Positions 128 through 36,383 of a DNA stretch of 40,576 bases are shown here, piece after piece (position 1 is the first letter of the stretch; every line of letters starts with the position of its first letter). The translations under genes and the position numbers were made by a program. Origin of the DNA: a virus; IMG/VR virus record IMGVR_UViG_3300038545_000012; one strand, given 5' to 3'. A model generated the notes under the pieces. It had not been told where the DNA came from and ran no database searches. It saw nothing but the letters and a program-made list of their open reading frames with translations.

Positions 128-937
128 AGTCCGGGTTTGCCACAGGATATCACTGACCCGTCACTGTCTGGCAAAGCTGTGCAAGCGTTACAGAAGCGCC
201 TTGATATGCAGTCTTACACGTACCAAGACCACCACAAGTACGCCATGCGTCGTGACGGTGAGATATATGCGTCAATGTTCCGTGATGTAATGGACAGCGA
301 ACAAGAAATCGTACTTGTTCAACTTGATGGTACAACATCGAGAGAAACGATTAATAAAGCTGAAATTAATTGGTCAAATATGCAAACGCAGATTGTCAAC
401 GATGTGCGTAAAATGATGTTTGATGTGTATGCGGATATTGGTCCATCGTTTGAATCTGTTAAATCGCAAAACCGCGAAGAGTTGAAAGAGCTAATCAATG
501 GATTGCCGCCAGGCGACCCAATGCGCAACATTCTGTTAAACGAGTACCTAACCATGCTCGAAGGTTCCCATATGGAAGATGTGCGAGAATATGCGCGTAA
601 ACAGTTGATTCTTCAAGGTATCAAAAAGCCAGAAACGCCAGAAGAAGAGCAGATGTTAATGCAGGCGCAACAGAATCAGCAACCTGATGCACAAACGCAA
701 GCATTACTCATGGAAGGTCAAGCACGGATGCAGGAAGGTCAAGCGGCGATTATGAATGAGGAAAACGACCGCATTAAACTTCAAATCGACCAATACAAAG
801 CAGACACAGACCGTCAGAAAGTGATTATCGAAGCGCAGAAAGCAGGGTTACAGATGCGTGATTTGGCGGTGAGTACACAGGGTAAGCAAATTGATAATGC
901 GATGAAGTTAAGACAGGGTGTGAGTGAGGGGCGTTAA
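2..937 (+). CDS. Portal protein, C-terminal part (continues 39338..40576 across the junction)
   Basis: The frame is continuous with the stop-less ORF from 39338. Motifs AMRRDGEIY, GPSFES.KSQNR and GIKKPETPEE match my recollection of P22 gp1. The Gln-rich helical C-terminus resembles the P22 portal barrel. Confidence 0.9.
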   Translation, partial: NHYGTNGDPLPVGPVGQTPDANVPPALMAAMAESRAAVDDVASPGLPQDITDPSLSGKAVQALQKRLDMQSYTYQDHHKYAMRRDGEIYASMFRDVMDSEQEIVLVQLDGTTSRETINKAEINWSNMQTQIVNDVRKMMFDVYADIGPSFESVKSQNREELKELINGLPPGDPMRNILLNEYLTMLEGSHMEDVREYARKQLILQGIKKPETPEEEQMLMQAQQNQQPDAQTQALLMEGQARMQEGQAAIMNEENDRIKLQIDQYKADTDRQKVIIEAQKAGLQMRDLAVSTQGKQIDNAMKLRQGVSEGR

Positions 938-943
938 GCCCCT
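927..943. terminator. GC hairpin AGGGGC-GTTAA-GCCCCT spanning the portal stop codon, between convergent genes
   Basis: 6-bp stem read directly. There is no U-tract on either strand, so terminator function is uncertain. Confidence 0.25.
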
Positions 944-1094
944 AGCCTGTATATACGTGGAATTTCAGATGCCAGTTTTCTGTATTCGGACTCTTTGGTT
1001 ACCTTAAATTGCCACATAAAATAAGCGTTATAAGGGCTGTTTGGCTCATACCCGTTGCAACTCCAAAGCTCATTAATTTTCTTTATGTGTGGCT

Positions 1095-1358
1095 TCATCC
1101 GTACACCCTAATCCTTTCTTTGTCTTTTCTTGAATAGAATTTTACGAATTTATAGTTATCAGCATCCTTTAATTCATGCTGAATAAGTTGGTGGTCTTTT
1201 TCATTCTCACAGATGATTGCTCTAATTTTAATGGTATCACCGTCAAAATCCTTTAACACCATATAATAATCAGGCTCACCATATTTCAGCAGGTCTTTTC
1301 TCGACACTCTTATTGCCGTTTTTAGGTCTGGCAAGCCATAAATAAATACTGATTTCAT
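1095..1358 (-). CDS. Hypothetical protein (87 aa), last gene of the counter-oriented cassette
   Basis: ORF in the track. The ATGA-type overlap with the upstream gene suggests coupling. It is visibly AT-rich compared with the flanking structural genes. Confidence 0.6.
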   Translation of the reverse strand: MKSVFIYGLPDLKTAIRVSRKDLLKYGEPDYYMVLKDFDGDTIKIRAIICENEKDHQLIQHELKDADNYKFVKFYSRKDKERIRVYG

Positions 1359-1558
1359 CCTTCCACCCCATTAAAACCCCTCTCCCAATCCGCAGCCTCT
1401 ATCGGGTGGTAGCCGTGATGCGACTCCCACTCTAAATCAAACTGCATGTTTAACTTGCCTATATCGCCGTTGCAATATCTAGCGCCGTTAAATGCGTTGG
1501 TCATGGCTTTGATTGATAGGTTGGCGTTTAGCATGTCTTGTGTTGTTTCTGTGTTCAC
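1355..1558 (-). CDS. Hypothetical protein (67 aa)
   Basis: ORF in the track. Its GTG start overlaps the stop of the upstream 50-aa ORF (GTGA). Confidence 0.55.
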   Translation of the reverse strand: MNTETTQDMLNANLSIKAMTNAFNGARYCNGDIGKLNMQFDLEWESHHGYHPIEAADWERGFNGVEG

Positions 1559-1707
1559 AACTCACCCCACTCTTTCAATAATCGCATTTCTTCTGCATCA
1601 CGTCTGCGTTGCGTAAATTGTTTATTGCGGTCCTTTTGCTCTTGTTCAACTTGCGCTTTTGCTGCATTAGCTAGTTGTGCTAGGTCGCGTAGTTGTTGTT
1701 CTGTCAT
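1555..1707 (-). CDS. Hypothetical small helical charged protein (50 aa, hand-translated: MTEQQLRDLAQLANAAKAQVEQEQKDRNKQFTQRRRDAEEMRLLKEWGEL)
   Basis: Below the track size cutoff. GGAG lies 5 nt upstream of the ATG. Its stop overlaps the next start. Confidence 0.5.
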   Translation of the reverse strand: MTEQQLRDLAQLANAAKAQVEQEQKDRNKQFTQRRRDAEEMRLLKEWGEL

Positions 1708-1708
1708 T

Positions 1709-1843
1709 TCACTCCATCCCCTTTATCATCTTATGCAACTTATCGTGCATCTTTTCGTTAGCGCAGTAGTTATCATACGTGCGCCGTGTAATCTGCCAAT
1801 AGTCAAGGAAGTCTTGCACCTTGTAACCTTTGGCGTGAATCAT
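1709..1843 (-). CDS. Small putative HTH protein (44 aa from the internal ATG; ORF is open up to 1936)
   Basis: The segment KVQDFLDYWQITRRTYDNY looks like a short helix-turn-helix. The start is ambiguous because the long version overlaps the upstream gene by 70 nt. Confidence 0.4.
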   Translation of the reverse strand: MIHAKGYKVQDFLDYWQITRRTYDNYCANEKMHDKLHKMIKGME

Positions 1844-1866
1844 CTTTGTGTGTTTGTTTGGTTTGC

Positions 1867-2238
1867 TCAAAACACCATCCCCGATAATCCTGCCAATCCC
1901 GAAATTACTGCCAATTCCGAAATTCCATTTGAGCAACCATGCGCACCCCTGCCATATAATGCTGCATTTTGCATTGATGCTTCGTGCGCTCTCTTTGGAT
2001 ATAACGATTCCTTGCTATCAATTACTACATCCTGCCTAGCATCAAGCTTTTCCTTTTGCGCTTCTAGCAACTCAAGTATTGCCTCATCATCATTGCAATA
2101 CATTTCCATTATTCGAAGCTTTAACTTTAACTCTTCATTCTCCTTTTCAACCGATTCAAGCGCATCGATTCTTTCCCTGTATTGAAAAAGCAAAGCCTCT
2201 TTTCTCGCCAATTCCTCTTTCAGTTTCTTGTTAAACAT
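1867..2238 (-). CDS. Coiled-coil protein (123 aa from the second ATG; ORF is open to 2253)
   Basis: The N-terminal two thirds are heptad-like and Glu/Lys/Leu-rich. GAGG lies 5 nt upstream of ATG 2238. It is the first gene downstream of the cassette promoter. Confidence 0.55.
   Translation of the reverse strand: MFNKKLKEELARKEALLFQYRERIDALESVEKENEELKLKLRIMEMYCNDDEAILELLEAQKEKLDARQDVVIDSKESLYPKRAHEASMQNAALYGRGAHGCSNGISELAVISGLAGLSGMVF
1893..1928. repeat. Tandem 18-bp direct repeat (CCAATCCCGAAATTACTG / CCAATTCCGAAATTCCAT), with a degenerate third unit just upstream
   Basis: Read directly. It lies in the region where the 1867..2253 and 1709..1936 reading frames overlap. Confidence 0.8.
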
Positions 2239-2274
2239 ACGCACCTCATTCATACGAAATTAATTCATATGTAG

Positions 2275-2303
2275 TTTATAAGCCACTATTACTACAATGT
2301 CAA
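2275..2303 (-). promoter_or_regulatory. Sigma70-type promoter TTGACA-N17-TATAAA driving the counter-oriented cassette
   Basis: The reverse complement of 2275..2303 reads TTGACATTGTAGTAATAGTGGCTTATAAA. It ends about 20-35 nt upstream of the candidate start codons. Confidence 0.6.
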
Positions 2304-2363
2304 TACTCGTATATGTCCGAGCATAGACATAGATAATTAATCGTTACACTACGAGGATAAAAA

Positions 2364-3410
2364 GTGGCAGAAAAATTAACGCTTGCAGAGCTGAAAGCTA
2401 AAAACGCAGCGGAAGAAGAAGCAGAGCAGGAAACCGAAGTTGTTGAGGTTGAGGAACAACAAGACACTAAAGTAACCATTGCACCTGTTGAAACTACCGT
2501 TGAAGAAACCGAAGACGACACCGACGAGGAAGAATCCGAGGATATTGAAAGCTGGATGCAAGAGGAAGTAGCGACTCCTGATGATGGAGATTCTGGTTTT
2601 AAACCTAACCGTGAAGCGGCGGCCGTTAGAAAGAAACTGAAAGCCAAGCTGCATGAGAAAGATGACGAACTTGAATCATTAAAAGCTGAAATCGAACGTT
2701 TGAAATCTGGCAGTGCGCAACAGGCAGCACCTGAGAAGATGCCGCCTAAGCCAAAGCTAGAAGATTTTGATTACGACGAAGCCGCGCATGAAGCAGCACT
2801 AGATGACTGGTACGAAAAGAAGATTGAAACAAAGCTTTCATCTACTCTAACTACCAAGCAGGCAGAGCAACAACAGCGCGAAGCGGCAGAGCGTCAAAAG
2901 AAAGCGCTAGAAGAGGCGGTAGACCGTCATTACACGCGAGCGGCGAAACTGGTTGAAGAAGGCAAGGTAAGCGAAGAGAAGTACACTCAAGCAGACCGAG
3001 CAGTCAGAGAATCATTTGAGCGAATCGCTAAAGGTAGGGGAGATAATATTGTTGATTCCCTTATCAAAACACTTGACTCGTTAGGTGAAGGAAGTGAGAA
3101 AGTATTTTATCAACTAGGCGTTAACCCTGCGAAGATGCAAGAGGTCGCGAATTTATTTGCAACTGACCCAAGCGGATTAAGCACAGTGGCGTACTTAGGT
3201 AAACTACAAGCCTCTATTCAATCACCTACTAAACGTAAATCGTCAGCACCTGCGCCAAGCCCTGAGTTGAAAGGCAGTGGCAGCACTAAAACACCCGGTG
3301 AAGCGTTATTGAAACGCTATAAGAAAGCCGGGAGCAACGTGCAAGCCCGTCTTGATATAAAACGAGAGGCAAAGCGTCAAGGTATTGATACTCGCAATTG
3401 GAGCGATTAA
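2364..3410 (+). CDS. Scaffolding protein (GTG start) with a very acidic N-terminal segment
   Basis: It lies immediately upstream of the coat gene, as P22 gp8 does. The composition is helical and charged, and the C-terminus is basic. Confidence 0.6.
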   Translation: MAEKLTLAELKAKNAAEEEAEQETEVVEVEEQQDTKVTIAPVETTVEETEDDTDEEESEDIESWMQEEVATPDDGDSGFKPNREAAAVRKKLKAKLHEKDDELESLKAEIERLKSGSAQQAAPEKMPPKPKLEDFDYDEAAHEAALDDWYEKKIETKLSSTLTTKQAEQQQREAAERQKKALEEAVDRHYTRAAKLVEEGKVSEEKYTQADRAVRESFERIAKGRGDNIVDSLIKTLDSLGEGSEKVFYQLGVNPAKMQEVANLFATDPSGLSTVAYLGKLQASIQSPTKRKSSAPAPSPELKGSGSTKTPGEALLKRYKKAGSNVQARLDIKREAKRQGIDTRNWSD

Positions 3411-3412
3411 TT

Positions 3413-4690
3413 ATGTCTATCACGGCAAACAAAGTAGCAGAAACACTTTTCGAGCAGCAGCTTGAAACCTATGAAGACCAAACGATGCTTATCGACAAAA
3501 CGCAGGTGTTCACCCCCGAAGGTGGTACGATGCAGAATGCTGGTAACGTCATTTGGCGCCCGAAAGAGCAACACAGACCAATCATTGAAGGTTGGGATTT
3601 AACAGGTCAAGAAACTGGCATTATCGAAGAGGCATACCCTGCTTACCTCGGTACGCCTAAAAACGATTTTGTATCTGTTCGTGTTGATAACATGCGTGAC
3701 AAACACTACTGGGAAGATGCGGGCCGTACTTCTGGTCGTCAGCAAGCAACTGAGCTTAACAAGTCAATTGCCAACCTGATTGCAACTAGTGGCTCACTGC
3801 ATTACCGTAGTAACACTGTATCTGGCTTCGACTTCATCAGTGAAGGCCAAGCCATTATGAATGAGCGTCAAGGTAAGCACACCCAGCGCTGTTTTGTACT
3901 GAATGACCGTGATACACGTAAATTCGGTCAAGACTTGGCGAGTCGTCAGACTGTGCGTGGTCGCCCTGAGGATACATGGATGACTGGTCAAATCGGCTCT
4001 AACGTTGCTGAGTTTGATGTTTATACAGGTTCATTCCTGCCTAACATCGTGGGCGGCGCGGACCCTGCGACAACTACCACAGCGGCGGCAAGCTTTAAGC
4101 CTGAAGGTGGCACAGTAGCGGCTGATAGCTATGATGTATCAAACGTTGATTACCGTAAAGCAACTATCGCGGTAACTTCATCGGCTGGTTATAACGTAGG
4201 TGACAAAATCACTATCGCTAACGGTGGTACAACTATCAAGTCAGTTGGTCTAGCTGATAAAACAAACACTGGTCAAGCAATGACATTCACTGTTGTAGCT
4301 AAACCAGATGCAACGTCGATGACTATCATGCCTAAGCCTATCGCGCTTGATGATGGCTCATTGTCTACGCTTGAGAAGTCTTACGCTAACGTTGATACTA
4401 CTATCACTAGTGGCGCAACTATCAACCGCGTAAACACTGATGCTTCAGCACGTGCTAACCTTTTCTGGGATAAAGACGCGATTGAAGTTGTTGGCGGTGA
4501 AGTGCCTATGCAAATGCTTGGTGACCTAGACGGCATGAAAGTGATTTCACAACCACTATCTAACGGTCTGAACATGTATATGGTTTATGATGCTAACATT
4601 GCTAACCTACAACTACGCTACCGTACATTTGTATGGTACGGGTTGACCATGAAAGACCCAAGCCGCGCAGGTGTTGCAACCACTTTTTAA
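3413..4690 (+). CDS. Major capsid (coat) protein, P22 gp5-like
   Basis: NVIWRPKEQ..EGWDLTG, GDKITIANG.., MPKPIALDDGSLS..YANV and LFWDKDAIE align with my recollection of P22 gp5. I chose ATG 3413 over the track start 3398. Confidence 0.9.
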   Translation: MSITANKVAETLFEQQLETYEDQTMLIDKTQVFTPEGGTMQNAGNVIWRPKEQHRPIIEGWDLTGQETGIIEEAYPAYLGTPKNDFVSVRVDNMRDKHYWEDAGRTSGRQQATELNKSIANLIATSGSLHYRSNTVSGFDFISEGQAIMNERQGKHTQRCFVLNDRDTRKFGQDLASRQTVRGRPEDTWMTGQIGSNVAEFDVYTGSFLPNIVGGADPATTTTAAASFKPEGGTVAADSYDVSNVDYRKATIAVTSSAGYNVGDKITIANGGTTIKSVGLADKTNTGQAMTFTVVAKPDATSMTIMPKPIALDDGSLSTLEKSYANVDTTITSGATINRVNTDASARANLFWDKDAIEVVGGEVPMQMLGDLDGMKVISQPLSNGLNMYMVYDANIANLQLRYRTFVWYGLTMKDPSRAGVATTF

Positions 4691-4710
4691 GTGAGTAGCT
4701 AATAAAAGAA

Positions 4711-4740
4711 ACCCCGTCTAAGTGCGGGGTTTTTTATTTT
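4711..4740 (+). terminator. Rho-independent terminator after the coat gene
   Basis: ACCCCG-8 nt loop-CGGGGT followed by TTTTTTATTTT. Confidence 0.8.
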
Positions 4741-4770: not shown

Positions 4771-4788
4771 AACAACTCTGACCAGTGA
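4771..4788 (+). repeat. Partial copy (a) of the conserved GACCAGT intergenic element
   Basis: AACAACTCTGACCAGTGA shares AACAACTCTGACCAGT with the reverse complement of 32623..32644. Confidence 0.5.
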
Positions 4789-25896: not shown

Positions 25897-25918
25897 TTAA
25901 CAACTCCGACCACTTAAC
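25897..25918 (+). repeat. Copy (c) of the conserved element (TTAACAACTCCGACCACTTAAC) in the divergent control region
   Basis: Read directly. It differs from copy d at 3 of the 21 aligned positions (TTAAC[A/T]ACTCCGACCA[C/G]TTAA[C/T]). Confidence 0.7.
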
Positions 25919-25989: not shown

Positions 25990-26181
25990 ATGAATCTCAA
26001 AAAATCAGTAAAAGTAATGTGCGCCATGCACGAAAAGCAACAAAAAGACCTAGCTGCATACCTAAAGATAACCAGCGCATATCTTTCAAAATTGCTAGGT
26101 GAAAACAATCCGCGATTGCTGTCTAAAATGGCAATGTATTTTAATGTATCAGTTAGCGAATTTGTAAAGGCAGGCGAATAA
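25990..26181 (+). CDS. Cro/XRE-type HTH regulator (63 aa)
   Basis: QKDLAAYLKITSAYLSKLLGENNP is an HTH_3 pattern. It is the first rightward gene. Confidence 0.6.
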   Translation: MNLKKSVKVMCAMHEKQQKDLAAYLKITSAYLSKLLGENNPRLLSKMAMYFNVSVSEFVKAGE

Positions 26182-29839: not shown

Positions 29840-29860
29840 TTAACTACTCCGACCAGTTAA
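29840..29860 (+). repeat. Copy (d) of the conserved element (TTAACTACTCCGACCAGTTAA)
   Basis: Read directly. Its ends are a perfect TTAAC...GTTAA inverted pair. It lies 17 nt upstream of a TTGACA hexamer. Confidence 0.75.
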
Positions 29861-32399: not shown

Positions 32400-32643
32400 A
32401 CGCACACCTAAGCCAGCATACGAGATACGCAAAGGGGTTTCTCTGCCGCAGCCATTAGATGAGCTTTATAAGGCTATTTACGAATCACGCATACCATTCG
32501 ATGAGCTATCAGAGAAGAGCGGCATACACACGGAGACAATGCGTAAATGGTTTAGCCTTGGCAATATGCCGACACTGTTTAGTTATATGGCAGTGGCTAA
32601 CGCTTTAGGCATGGAAGTGAAACTAACTGGTCAGAGTTGTTAA
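32386..32643 (+). CDS. XRE-type HTH protein (85 aa)
   Basis: LSEKSGIHTETMRKWFSLGNMPTLFSYMAVANALGMEV. I chose the internal ATG 32386. Confidence 0.5.
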   Translation: MSTIRRTPKPAYEIRKGVSLPQPLDELYKAIYESRIPFDELSEKSGIHTETMRKWFSLGNMPTLFSYMAVANALGMEVKLTGQSC

Positions 32644-33785: not shown

Positions 33786-33931
33786 CCTTCAAATATTCAG
33801 AATTCGCACACCTAATCCAAACAGAATTTTGGTATATGACAGCGAGTACAGGTGCAATAGCTGTTGTGTGCTGTGGTGTTACGATTGCTGTTGTTGAGCT
33901 GGTTAAGCCGCTGTTGAGGAGAGGGAAGTGA
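33779..33931 (+). CDS. Small membrane protein (50 aa)
   Basis: AAAGGAG lies 8 nt upstream of ATG 33779. There is one hydrophobic helix. Confidence 0.45.
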   Translation: MLAFKYSEFAHLIQTEFWYMTASTGAIAVVCCGVTIAVVELVKPLLRRGK

Positions 33932-34299
33932 GAGATATTAAGTTTAGGATGTTCAGTAAGGGAAGAAATAAAATTATTTCATGGGAAGAGTTGCAAAAAC
34001 TTCATGTGCATACGGTTTTTAGCATGATGACACCTGAATGCAGGTTGATGCAATACACCGGACTAAAAGACAAAAACGGCGTTGAGATTTATGAGGGTGA
34101 TATTGTTAAAGGTAAGTGTAGTTACGGGCATCCAATCAGTCTGAAAAGATTTATAGGTAAAGTTGAGTTTGGCTCAGGCTCTCTATCATTCATTGCGCAG
34201 GGTGTAAAGCAATACGAATGGAAGCAGTGCCACCTAGTAGAGTGTTCAAGGCTTGAAGTAATCGGCAACATCCATCAGAACCCTGAGCTACTATCATGA
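33928..34299 (+). CDS. YopX-family protein
   Basis: IKFRMF...MQYTGLKDKNGVEIYEGDIV...EVIGNIHQNPELL is the YopX signature. Confidence 0.8.
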   Translation: MRDIKFRMFSKGRNKIISWEELQKLHVHTVFSMMTPECRLMQYTGLKDKNGVEIYEGDIVKGKCSYGHPISLKRFIGKVEFGSGSLSFIAQGVKQYEWKQCHLVECSRLEVIGNIHQNPELLS

Positions 34300-34589: not shown

Positions 34590-36383
34590 ATGATGGCAAC
34601 GGCACTAATATTTCAAGGTGGAAATCAAAAGGCTACATTTTCACCTGTCACTCTAGCAGGTGATTTCACTTTAACAATTGTCGCTACAAACACTCAGAAC
34701 GGTTCATTTTTCGTATCTGGCGGCAACTCAGCTGGTGGCCTTGAGGTATATAGGAGCGGCTCAGGTAAGGTGTCTATATTTATAGGCGGTTCAATCCTGT
34801 TCAGTGGGAATGTCACCTTGTCTTCTACGTTTACATCTCCAGATACTATTGTTTTATCAAGGTCATCAGGGGTAATCTCGCTAACGGTTAACGGTACACC
34901 TGACGGCAGCGGCTCTAACTCAGATAGCCTTACTATCAGCACTTACGCAAACAGGGCTGGCGTTACCTCTACGGGTTTCGCGGCTGTTATGTATCTATAC
35001 TCATGTACCGTGTCAGGATTGCATAATTGGGATGCCGCAAGCAGCGATACTAGTAATACAGGCGCACAGCCAATCCTTGTTGATACGATAGGCGCAAACA
35101 ACGCAACAGGCGAGTCAATGCCAACTGACGGTAGCGCATGGGCTGTTGTTAGCGTGGCAGGTTTAGCAATTCAAACGCCAGATTATTCATTCTTTCGAGA
35201 TGGTAGCGGTAACAATGTCATAAGCGGCACGTACGCCGGAACTCCTGCTAGCATTGAGTATTCTATTGACGGGGGTGCATGGCAGGTTGGCGATGCTGCC
35301 CCAAGTGGCGAAACCTTCTCGTTTGCTGTATCAATACCGCAAGGGGAATCTACGGTAACGCTGCGATTTAGTGACGACATAGCTACAACTGATAGTGTTA
35401 TACTCGTTAACCCAGCACTTATAATTGCCTCAGGCGCAGTTCAGTCTAATTTTTCAGGTAGATTAGATAGCGCACAAACTTACACATCAGTTGGTGGCGT
35501 CAAGGCTTACATGCTTGGCAATGATGATGTGTATAAAGAGCTAGTAGACCCAACTGACAGCGTGACAAACCAAGTAGATGATGTGTCTAGGGAGAATGTA
35601 ACTGTTGGAGGCTCTTGGATTGTTAGATTCGCTAACGAATGGATAGCAAACCAAGGTACGCCGATTGCAATAGTTCAAAACGCAAAAGGCGGTACAACTA
35701 TTGGAGAGTGGCAAAAGGACAGTATAGATAGAGTCGGCGGTCTAAACCTTTATGAATCCATGGCAAGGCGCATTGCTTTGGTTGGTGGCGTAGATGTTAT
35801 ATTTGCCCAAATTGGCGAGACAGATTCAAACATAAACACAGACGCAACTGTCTATAAAAATGAATTTATTCAATTCGCTGCTGACGTAAAGGTAGATTTT
35901 GGAACAGATACATTTATTACACCGCTTCACACAATTACGGCAACTGGATTTGATGGTAATGGAACAACGACAGGGCAGGCCGCAATCAGGCAGGCTCAAA
36001 TCGATGCCGCCAGCGAATCTGTAAATATCAGCATTGGGTCATCGATTACAGATTTAGATGTTTCTGGCAATGATGGCTTGCATTTTAATACAGACGCGCA
36101 AGCTCAAACAATAGCTGAAAGAATGTATGCAAGTTACACGGGTGCTGTATCAAGCATCACGCTCAACATAGGTGCGCCTGATGGTACTTACCACCTTTAC
36201 CTTGCACAAGGTACGCAAGGGAATGTCACTAAGGTTTATGATGGCCCAGCTACTTTCGCAGGTGGCGGTACTACGGTTTCAGGATTGCCAGTTGCCCCAA
36301 GTACATTGCTAAGGGGCTTTGTTGATAGTAGTGACACTGCCGCGCTAGATACAGGCGATGGGGTTAAAGGGGTTACAGTCTAA
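34590..36383 (+). CDS. LamG-like + SASA/SGNH carbohydrate O-acetylesterase-like protein (597 aa)
   Basis: The N-terminus is a concanavalin/LamG-like beta-sandwich pattern. The central part has GAVQSNFSG (GQSNM-type), KGGTTIGEWQKD, FAQIGETDSN (WhQGEsD-type) and GNDGLHFN (DxxH block). Confidence 0.7.
   Translation: MMATALIFQGGNQKATFSPVTLAGDFTLTIVATNTQNGSFFVSGGNSAGGLEVYRSGSGKVSIFIGGSILFSGNVTLSSTFTSPDTIVLSRSSGVISLTVNGTPDGSGSNSDSLTISTYANRAGVTSTGFAAVMYLYSCTVSGLHNWDAASSDTSNTGAQPILVDTIGANNATGESMPTDGSAWAVVSVAGLAIQTPDYSFFRDGSGNNVISGTYAGTPASIEYSIDGGAWQVGDAAPSGETFSFAVSIPQGESTVTLRFSDDIATTDSVILVNPALIIASGAVQSNFSGRLDSAQTYTSVGGVKAYMLGNDDVYKELVDPTDSVTNQVDDVSRENVTVGGSWIVRFANEWIANQGTPIAIVQNAKGGTTIGEWQKDSIDRVGGLNLYESMARRIALVGGVDVIFAQIGETDSNINTDATVYKNEFIQFAADVKVDFGTDTFITPLHTITATGFDGNGTTTGQAAIRQAQIDAASESVNISIGSSITDLDVSGNDGLHFNTDAQAQTIAERMYASYTGAVSSITLNIGAPDGTYHLYLAQGTQGNVTKVYDGPATFAGGGTTVSGLPVAPSTLLRGFVDSSDTAALDTGDGVKGVTV

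Follow-up and report, generated by a model that had tools for sequence, protein, structure and literature searches.

In the Hendrix/Juhala sense applied in PMC2629481, a moron separates genes that adjoin one another in related phages, takes no part in morphogenesis or lysis, differs in content between relatives and in base composition from its neighbours, and has a promoter and terminator of its own. Morons of the lambda/HK97 type are single genes that lie between late genes and carry their own promoter and terminator. In enteric P22-like phages, the ant moron (the immI region, comprising mnt, arc, ant, sar and sieA) is located between genes 16 and 9, where it forms a variable and independently expressed segment inside the late operon that some relatives lack and that varies between close relatives (PMC2629481). 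According to that study, the other parts of the morphogenetic clusters in the phages compared contain no morons (PMC2629481). T4-like phages carry small variable clusters of ORFans between their core genes, and shuffling by promoter-early stem-loop (PeSL) elements, which are short conserved regulatory sequences, occurs at gene boundaries (PMC4122927; PMC2839356). A further arrangement of relevance is the acr-aca operon, in which an anti-CRISPR is combined with an anti-CRISPR-associated regulator, with the architecture described in PMC6765145 and PMC9410906.

Here we describe a block of genes at the portal-scaffold junction of an uncultivated virus (IMG/VR record IMGVR_UViG_3300038545_000012), the analysed DNA of which, 40,576 nucleotides in its full length, is referred to as the window. 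The block is likely to be one allele of a hypervariable island of accessory genes, resembling a moron or a hyperplastic region, that occupies this junction in a marine clade of P22-like podophages. Because closely related viruses were each found to carry a different gene set, the junction is, as read from the sequences compared, a gene-swapping hot spot for accessory functions and not a structural module, a single fixed system or one new machine.

The gap between the portal gene, which ends at 937, and the GTG start of the scaffold gene at 2364 spans 938..2363 (1426 bp), in agreement with the initial annotation, which had placed about 1.4 kb of coupled minus-strand open reading frames (ORFs) between the two genes. 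This gap was found to be filled by six consecutive minus-strand ORFs (A to F) and not by five as had been reported, since the last of these, F (934..1098, minus strand, 54 aa), had been overlooked. Starts and stops overlap throughout with one exception: A/B overlap by TTGA, C/D by GTGA, and D/E and E/F by ATGA, and B is separated from C by a 1-nt spacer. Shine-Dalgarno sequences accompany these 4-nt overlaps. The GC content of the cassette is 40.4% compared to 44.2% for the whole window, a value in the lowest 6.6% among segments of 1.36 kb; the AT-richness described previously is present but modest, as the GC content equals that of the other small-gene regions of this phage. The dN/dS ratios of 0.03-0.39 for A, B, C, D and F reveal purifying selection and identify these five as real coding sequences, and E is likewise taken as real based on a full-length homologue of 47% identity.

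The variable segment, or island proper, was delimited by homology breakpoints relative to at least 20 related loci (numbered here with the prefix L) and covers 1360 bp on the minus strand (945..2304). Homology to relatives breaks at 943-947 (at 924 in L026-L027) and again at 2304. Both edges are marked by fixed anchors, a hairpin at the portal stop and a conserved scaffold leader, and between them the island always reads against the structural genes. The hairpin, GGGGC-GTTAA-GCCCC (928..942), forms the portal-side edge of the variable segment, and its loop contains both the TAA of the portal gene (935..937) and the TAA of F, the last gene of the cassette (936..934). The window, L009 and L026 all have this hairpin, and L003 has a variant of it, even when the portal stop is located elsewhere. 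In L026 the hairpin is followed on the cassette strand by TTTTT; the hairpin of the window has no such U-tract, and a minus-strand terminator scan near 934 revealed no canonical terminator at the 3' end of the cassette. On the opposite side, the scaffold leader (2305..2363, plus strand) lies outside the cassette as a conserved flank, is near-identical upstream of every array type and is recognisable even in L019 and L020. Its proximal half, ATCGTTACACTACGAGGATAAAAAGTG, is also found in Vibrio phage 1.275.O. A structured RNA in this leader was considered and dismissed (z-score of -0.99, not significant).

Comparison to relatives revealed how variable the content of this junction is. Among phages with a portal C-terminus at least 95% identical, at least 8 different arrays were detected, all counter-oriented and with lengths between 0.48 and 2.0 kb in near-identical phages, with further arrays in L021, L024 and L026. 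Scaffold, coat and portal are 86-97% identical while the content of the array differs. Island content was found to turn over gene by gene between phages with near-identical flanking structural genes, and at least 40 families of small proteins (gene sizes of 31-132 aa) are reshuffled at the locus in this manner. The junction is empty in Pseudomonas phage AH02 (114 bp) and Vibrio phage 1.275.O (172 bp) and, among 37 IMG/VR relatives, falls below 260 bp in about half, compared to 1426 bp in the window. The synteny comparison proposed in the initial annotation thus revealed a junction that is normally empty and, when occupied, holds different sets of genes at the same place in different relatives, not the same genes with structural annotations throughout. 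The core of its moron-type interpretation is borne out by these differing sets, by the normally empty junction and by the lower GC content; the cassette has a candidate promoter of its own (an 11/12 match) and no canonical terminator. The proposal that the cassette was the best candidate for an undescribed system is not supported in that form, as the six genes were found to be a mosaic drawn from at least 40 families with no fixed, co-inherited unit.

The junctions between alleles were also informative in their detail. The sequence shared by the window and L013 covers the leader and 7 nt at the beginning of gene 1 (codons MNEV.MF in the longer frame), beyond which the two diverge. An MKPHI start is common to unrelated proteins, and the last gene of every array takes its '...GA*' ending and stop from the flank. 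The L011 allele carries a YopX gene, a homologue of which lies in a non-structural region of the window (33928..34299). Members of a set of C-like proteins, D and F recur in most alleles, so part of the island may have a conserved function and may not be free-floating cargo. Depending on the allele, the position after D is taken by E, by genes for membrane peptides or by F.

The first gene of the cassette, A (1867..2238, minus strand), encodes 123 aa with an N-terminal coiled coil, a conserved core, MEMYCNDDEAILELLEA, and a Gly/Leu-rich C-terminal tail. Its start is the ATG at 2238, which is preceded by the Shine-Dalgarno sequence GAGGTG, and not the alternative at 2253. The tail is encoded by 18-nt repeats (1875..1910) and is of variable length among homologues. 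A deep protein search detected six homologues of A, all restricted to the clade; identity among relatives is 51-70% and dN/dS is 0.21-0.23. B (1709..1870, minus strand) is a basic protein of 53 aa (pI 9.5) that initiates with a TTG overlapping the stop of A. This start, at 1870, matches that of the homologues in L013, L021 and L024, where B is 83-98% identical (dN/dS 0.03) although the upstream gene varies; in L013 an unrelated 101-aa gene is in the place of A. B is a candidate DNA-binding regulator by prediction. A helix-turn-helix (HTH) was suggested solely by reading the sequence pattern by eye, and no match to B was detected in Pfam, PHROG, PADLOC, NCBIfam or PDB even at E <= 10. The putative HTH protein of 44-75 aa described earlier thus corresponds to a 53-aa protein in which the HTH was not confirmed by Pfam or PDB.

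The remaining four genes differ in how widely they are distributed. C (1555..1707, minus strand) encodes a charged protein of 50 aa of single-helix type, with the GTGA overlap at its D boundary and a dN/dS of 0.06-0.09. C is one of the C-like proteins (M[TN](Y)EQxL ... KWExxL), members of which precede D in most arrays. D (1355..1558, minus strand; 67 aa, acidic, pI 4.7) is the most widely shared family at the locus, has an invariant C-terminus (GYHPIEAADWExGFN) and a dN/dS of 0.08-0.39, and by the deep protein search has six homologues, again clade-restricted. E (1095..1358, minus strand; 87 aa, pI 9.0) is a cargo gene confined to the array type of the window. A search of 1.8 billion representatives returned one true homologue of E, that of 47% identity, which is likewise convergent to a portal gene; a 3767-aa 'hit' was rejected as a repeat artefact. 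F, the coordinates of which are given above, is basic (pI 9.4), has the N-terminal motif MKPHIKKxNGxWxC...TPxxAY, and belongs to a family that is always last in the array and adjoins the portal gene. Its homologues number 12 in the deep protein search, are clade-restricted and give a dN/dS of 0.19-0.31.

Database searches with all six proteins against Pfam, PHROGs, PADLOC and NCBIfam returned nothing significant, and PDB sequence searches with single proteins and with family profiles gave matches at chance level only. The concatenated proteins had no tblastn match at E <= 1 among GenBank phages and PLSDB plasmids, the region itself was without a megablast match in phages, and an Rfam search over the whole window was likewise negative. 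As far as these sequence searches reach, all cassette families are restricted to the clade. Structure modelling, which had been recommended for the proteins, gave no confident fold or function. The AlphaFold2 model of D has three helices (pLDDT 61), and that of E is a low-confidence beta-alpha-beta-beta-alpha-beta arrangement (pLDDT 57.5) for which Foldseek searches of PDB and BFVD returned only generic ferredoxin-like matches (E >= 0.01) and no fold assignment. An origin from a transposon or homing element was considered and set aside, as no terminal inverted repeats, nuclease or transposase were found.

A sigma70-type promoter, TTGACA-N17-TATAAA, is located at 2275..2303 on the minus strand and matches the consensus at 11/12 positions, which makes it the best sigma70 match in the window as originally stated. 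Approximately 1.4 matches of at least 11/12 are expected in a shuffled window, and the match alone is not significant; its weight comes instead from its position and from its conservation in L013 and L024, both of which have the same A/B-type leader and keep the promoter as TTGACA-N17-TATAAC. The promoter does not have the conserved T at -7 and thus was left unlisted by a consensus scan. Its -35 element abuts the homology breakpoint at 2304. Between the -10 element and the start of A are two near-palindromes of the form TTCATATGAA, 15 bp apart (2264..2273 and 2249..2258, minus strand), which are the only two matches to this form in the 40.6-kb window. One perfect copy of TTCATATGAA is found at the same place in the leader of L021, upstream of its own A/B pair. 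In L013 and L024 the second copy is identical and the first has diverged. Based on these four related leaders, the palindromes are candidate operators.

A promoter-like leader heads every array type. Arrays other than those with this type-1 leader are preceded by promoter-like sequences of another family, a member of which is also located ahead of the leftward RecT operon of the window phage. In this type-2 leader the motif TAACTGGTCGGAGTTGT is combined with a TAnnnT hexamer placed 17 nt after a -35-like TTGTWW, and the same arrangement of motif and hexamer was detected at the head of the RecT operon and at 2/3 of the other intergenic motif sites. The repeated motif, TAACTGGTCRGAGTTGT, heads the type-2 arrays and is found neither in the array of the window itself nor between genes inside arrays. 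Four motif sites were observed in the window versus 0.07 expected, and terminator hairpins directly follow two of them. A collection-wide scan with the 15-mer motif returned mostly single matches attributable to chance, together with several phage contigs that had multiple matches. As a separate observation, RecT is itself mosaic among the relatives, with a best identity of 66%.

Compared to the ant moron, the island is similar in its variable length and content, its presumably non-morphogenetic genes, its candidate promoters, its location inside the late operon and its orientation, the ant moron being partly counter-oriented. The two differ in site (portal/scaffold for the island and gene 16/tailspike for the ant moron), in that all cassette genes of the window point in the same direction, and in that no lysogeny module was seen in the window phage. 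By our searches they also have no family or sequence in common with respect to mnt, arc, ant and sieA. The island resembles lambda/HK97 morons as extra DNA of lower GC content, with a candidate promoter of its own, between genes that are adjacent in relatives. Unlike those morons, it is a coupled operon of six genes and not a single gene, has no canonical terminator, and represents a lasting hot spot at which many alleles occur, not a one-off insertion. The presence of a variable ORFan cluster between conserved core genes is in common with the hyperplastic regions of T4, and a repeated promoter motif, placed ahead of many alleles and present at four sites of the window, is reminiscent of PeSL. 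The phage type differs, however, and in the arrays translational coupling links the genes, which are not separated by individual promoter/terminator units. A role of the promoter motif in recombination is inferred from sequence. The likeness to acr-aca operons is limited to the A-B sub-module, which in our analysis resembles such an operon in its predicted strong, near-consensus promoter, its fast-evolving and replaceable first gene, its conserved basic downstream protein, and inverted repeats between the -10 and the start codon, with binding to these repeats putative; the predicted roles would be those of regulator for B and inhibitor for A. By contrast to acr-aca operons, B is without a detectable HTH and has no similarity to described families.

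Several other explanations were weighed against an island of exchangeable accessory genes. A classical moron transcribed from a repressed prophage, and conferring superinfection exclusion or a conversion trait like sieA, mnt or ant, is suggested by the counter-orientation and sigma70-type promoter inside the late operon, by the P22 precedent (PMC2629481; also PMC10883804) and by the small membrane proteins encoded in several relatives' alleles (families f8, f9 and f11). This explanation is weakened by the finding that no integrase, serine recombinase or CI-type repressor is encoded in the 40.6-kb window, where a Cro-like 63-aa ORF (25990..26181) was the only such regulator seen. The sole match in a genome collection was a 27.7-kb MAG contig that carries phage structural genes in the flanks examined. 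A convincing transmembrane helix was found in none of the six proteins; a C-terminal membrane anchor on A was dismissed, as the segment in the window is borderline and those of homologues are of insufficient length, the tail length not being conserved. Prophage expression is thus considered unlikely. Quite unlikely in our view is a regulatory role in which convergent transcription, or the 1.36-kb spacer itself, tunes late transcription into scaffold and coat relative to portal. Read-through from the portal gene must indeed cross the island on the opposite strand, and the junction divides a low-copy gene (portal) from high-copy genes (scaffold and coat). However, interference would reduce the expression of scaffold and coat, the opposite of what assembly needs, island length varies over the range given above among near-identical phages, and some relatives do without an island. 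Furthermore, purifying selection on the ORFs at the protein level indicates that the proteins matter.

A phage-carried toxin-antitoxin or other anti-phage defence system would fit the small genes with overlapping stops and starts, the alternation of acidic and basic products (pI 4.7 for D, 9.0 for E and 9.4 for F), and a small protein often encoded at the junction of distant relatives with a faint Phd/YefM-like N-terminus. The latter similarity does not reach significance (E = 0.15 and 0.72), and a relationship of this family to E was rejected (hhalign probability 0). No recognisable toxin, antitoxin or defence family was detected by PADLOC, Pfam or NCBIfam, all cassette proteins are much smaller than known defence effectors, and partners are not co-inherited, the neighbours of D differing from allele to allele; such a system is very improbable. 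Least credible, with hardly any chance of being correct, is that the products are virion or assembly factors such as extra scaffolding, decoration or ejection proteins. The position within the head-assembly cluster is what this idea has in its favour, but the cassette is on the opposite strand, its content differs among phages with portal at least 95% and scaffold approximately 86-97% identical, relatives that have the same coat fold lack its genes, and no PHROG structural match was found. A non-morphogenetic role of the cassette is inferred from this variability of content.

Returning to the accessory-gene island, we propose that the array would form a single operon with translational coupling, transcribed by host RNA polymerase from the promoter at 2303..2275, independently of late read-through and convergent with it. 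The products would act on the host or on competing elements, for example in takeover, counter-defence or exclusion, and not in the virion. Within A-B, the B protein would probably act as a repressor of this promoter by way of the pair of TTCATATGAA-like palindromes that lie shortly after the -10. Alleles may be exchanged by homologous recombination in the conserved flanks and in the short sequences shared at gene starts. A bolder version of this proposal, which we offer as speculative and unlikely, is that the island is the counter-defence or host-takeover locus of the clade. A-B would then be a new acr-aca-like operon, with B representing a new family of autorepressors acting on TTCATATGAA, A and the 101-aa protein of L013 would be new inhibitors of host immunity, and the C-like proteins, D and F would provide a second conserved function.

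By itself the island reveals no new mechanism. What it provides is a second tolerated moron site inside the P22-like morphogenetic cluster, at portal/scaffold, with fixed anchors and many alleles, and thus a natural experiment in the exchange of accessory genes at gene boundaries within an essential operon. It also provides a compact catalogue of small protein families, at least 40 in all, that evolve under selection and lack known relatives, and that are plausible candidates for host takeover or counter-defence. The definition of the locus, from the portal-stop hairpin to the scaffold leader, can be used to harvest more alleles from metagenomes. If the counter-defence reading were true, the locus would serve as a guilt-by-association anchor for mining numerous new families of small inhibitors in marine phages.

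The window covers the whole genome of a P22-like podophage, about 40.6 kb in circular assembly. Its portal gene stops at 937, and beyond it come a scaffold-type gene, opening with GTG at 2364, and a P22-fold coat gene (3398..4690). The minus strand of the 1426-bp portal-scaffold gap is occupied by six back-to-back ORFs, namely A (1867..2238, 123 aa), B (1709..1870, 53 aa), C (1555..1707, 50 aa), D (1355..1558, 67 aa), E (1095..1358, 87 aa) and F (934..1098, 54 aa). The cassette described in the initial annotation is real, although it was counted there as five genes. The junctions from A to F are, in order, TTGA, a 1-nt spacer, GTGA, ATGA and ATGA, and the overlapping TAAs of F and the portal gene lie in the loop of a hairpin (GGGGC-GTTAA-GCCCC, 928..942). 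Gene A most likely starts at its second ATG, where a GAGGTG Shine-Dalgarno is present; this form is recorded by gene callers. Gene B, initially given as 44-75 aa, starts at a TTG overlapping the TGA of A, in agreement with 53-aa homologues that begin MSKPN. Compared codon by codon with homologues in related loci, A, B, C, D and F had dN/dS values of 0.03-0.39, and a homologue of E was full-length and gap-free at 47% identity. This conservation supports the cassette ORFs as real genes.

Similar DNA or proteins were not detected among the GenBank phages and plasmids searched. The portal-scaffold gap is empty in the isolates with the most similar coat proteins, Pseudomonas phage AH02 (coat 66%, gap 114 bp) and Vibrio phage 1.275.O (coat 50%, gap 172 bp). 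Metagenomic relatives are much nearer, at 95-100% identity in the portal C-terminus and 86-97% in the scaffold, and each carries a different counter-oriented small-gene set at the same junction: 54+66 aa plus an uncalled 56-aa homologue of C, 43+68 aa, 42+67+45 aa, 77+43+67+41+64 aa, a YopX-containing set, or eight genes in 2 kb. The relatives lose nucleotide homology to the window abruptly at about 945 and regain it at 2304/2305, precisely at the upstream boundary of the -35 hexamer. In 37 IMG/VR relatives at greater distance (coat 29-97% identical), gap lengths run from 33 bp to about 3 kb, and about half of the gaps are essentially empty. Based on the differing sets, the sharp homology breaks and the variable gap, the junction is a standing hot spot of which the window carries one allele. 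The comparative evidence, with alleles that differ among close relatives and empty junctions in AH02 and 1.275.O, supports the initial reading of a moron-type cassette; a single undescribed system is not supported. Distant P22-like relatives repeatedly encode at this junction a 55-76 aa protein of pattern FTAxEFRKxPAxVY..GExVxIxH, on the minus strand in six loci and the plus strand in four, at times beside the gene for a 176-188 aa protein; its likeness to the Phd/YefM antitoxin N-terminus is faint and non-significant (Pfam E = 0.15; PDB 3dbo E = 0.72).

Clustering of the predicted products of 13 alleles gave at least 40 families in a loose common gene order: leader and promoter, optional A-B or other genes, a short charged helical 'C-like' protein, D, optional small membrane peptides and, adjoining the portal gene, an F-type protein (MKPHIKKxNGxWxC...). 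The leader and first codons (MNEV.MF) are common to the window and the related locus L013, with the proteins unrelated beyond; the MKPHI start is common to unrelated proteins; and the last gene of any allele runs into the conserved flank, borrowing the hairpin-loop TAA as its stop and ending '...GA'. These shared edges indicate that exchange between alleles probably takes place at gene boundaries. A YopX-family gene (PF09643, 132-aa ORF) in the L011 island has a 38%-identical homologue in the non-structural region of the window (33928-34299, plus strand), so that one kind of accessory gene is found in both places. On the scaffold side, a 60-nt leader (2305-2363, plus strand) upstream of the GTG at 2364 is conserved before every island allele. 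Vibrio phage 1.275.O shares the proximal half, ATCGTTACACTACGAGGATAAAAAGTG. In the distal half, CTCG-N8-CGAG, replaced by the compensated form CTCC..GGAG in L008 and L020, overlaps TATGTC-N8-GACATA. Fold prediction for the leader RNA was not significant (z = -0.99); the leader may control the scaffold gene at the level of translation or transcription.

The promoter proposed for the cassette, TTGACA-N17-TATAAA (2303..2275, minus strand), is indeed the best sigma70 match in the window (11/12 positions), but is not significant by itself, with about 1.4 matches as good expected in a shuffled window. It has no conserved T at -7 and was omitted by a consensus scan tool for this reason. Its credibility comes from context: the ribosome-binding site of A follows about 30 nt downstream, and the promoter is conserved as TTGACA-N17-TATAAC in L013 and L024, the arrays of which open with the same leader as the window. 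The AT-richness noted initially is modest: cassette GC (40.4% vs 44.2% for the window) falls in the lowest 6.6% of equal-sized windows and equals that of the other small-gene regions of the phage at about 20-21, 23-24 and 27 kb.

Most alleles not of the window's type have a leader with TAACTGGTCGGAGTTGT, the final bases of which (TTGTAA) form a -35-like hexamer followed after 16-17 nt by an extended -10, TGnTAGTTT. The same motif, as TAACTGGTC[G/A]GAGTTGT, was found at four intergenic sites of the window (4772-4788, 25900-25916 and 29843-29859, minus strand; 32624-32640, plus strand), where chance would give 0.07. Its end forms a -35-like TTGTWW, and at three of the sites TAnnnT lies exactly 17 nt further downstream. 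One of the four heads the leftward RecT/HNH operon, in its promoter region. Thus, in the relatives a standard promoter of the phage itself probably drives the island; in the window, L013 and L024, a near-consensus sigma70 promoter would replace it. The presence of a promoter-like leader in every allele supports transcription of the island as a separate unit, convergent with late read-through. The motif was found again in several multi-hit IMG/VR phage contigs. At 4772 and 32624 it is followed within about 40 nt by a same-strand intrinsic terminator, a pairing that resembles the lambdoid PR'-tR' arrangement or a tiny RNA gene. Directly 3' of the coat gene is a strong bidirectional intrinsic terminator (4706-4735, both strands; 12-bp stem and T-run), with the promoter-family motif on the opposite strand 40 nt beyond; together these may represent either a vacant promoter-terminator unit or another possible site of insertion.

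Expression of the island from a prophage was also considered. A 63-aa Cro/XRE-like HTH ORF (25990-26181, plus strand) opens a rightward operon, but the full 40.6 kb turned up no integrase, no serine recombinase and no CI-type repressor, and prophage expression is not favoured for this reason. On the same grounds, the phage may be virulent or have an unrecognised lysogeny module. A protein of 597 aa (34590-36383, plus strand) combines a SASA-type carbohydrate esterase domain (PF03629, E = 5e-20) with a weak match to an Ig-like domain (E = 3e-4, under Pfam's cut-off). Its gene lies immediately upstream of those for the terminase and apart from those for the tail, which may be an unusual position for a receptor-modifying enzyme.

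Searches of Pfam, PHROGs, PADLOC, NCBIfam and PDB sequences returned no significant match for the cassette proteins and yielded no functional assignment; the HTH of B stays putative, as read from its sequence pattern only. Low-confidence AlphaFold2 models gave three helices for D (pLDDT 61) and beta-alpha-beta-beta-alpha-beta for E (pLDDT 57.5), and Foldseek returned just generic ferredoxin-like matches (E >= 0.01). Protein A is a coiled coil with a conserved core, MEMYCNDDEAILELLEA, and a Gly/Leu-repeat tail; D is acidic, C near neutral (pI 6.2) and B, E and F basic. Homologue clusters among 5.8 billion proteins numbered 12 for F, 6 for D and 6 for A, and E had one true homologue among 1.8 billion representatives, the gene of which is also convergent to a P22-type portal gene. 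The families are thus restricted to this phage group.

A and B occur together in the window, L021 and L024, and L013 keeps B with A replaced by an unrelated Cys-rich 101-aa gene; B is 83-98% identical compared to 51-70% for A. The leader of L021 places a perfect TTCATATGAA palindrome downstream of the -10 and ahead of the start codon, and a whole-window search allowing one mismatch found exactly two copies (2264..2273 and 2249..2258, 15 bp apart), both in the cassette leader. With a predicted strong promoter, a first gene that can be replaced, a small basic protein that is conserved and candidate operator palindromes just past the -10, A-B follows the layout of acr-aca operons (PMC6765145; PMC9410906). 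The likeness is one of architecture and not membership: B matches no described family and nothing connects A with any defence system. In L024 and L025, the A homologue (first island gene) is split into 32-aa and 71-aa ORFs with the downstream B intact, which may be a decaying or re-initiated version; a 69-aa form is on six contigs.

The closest described counterpart of the island is the ant moron of enteric P22-like phages, a variable, independently expressed, non-morphogenetic block between gene 16 and the tailspike gene that possibly affects late read-through into the latter; besides it, the morphogenetic clusters are without morons according to the authors (PMC2629481). The two are the same kind of thing, but differ in site, clade and genes, which are unrelated. 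The probable gene-boundary shuffling and the repeated promoter motif of the island are reminiscent of T4-like hyperplastic regions and PeSL elements (PMC4122927; PMC2839356). Taken together, the island presents no new mechanism but a cleanly delimited hot spot, rich in small proteins under selection, within which A-B is one sub-module of anti-defence-operon layout.
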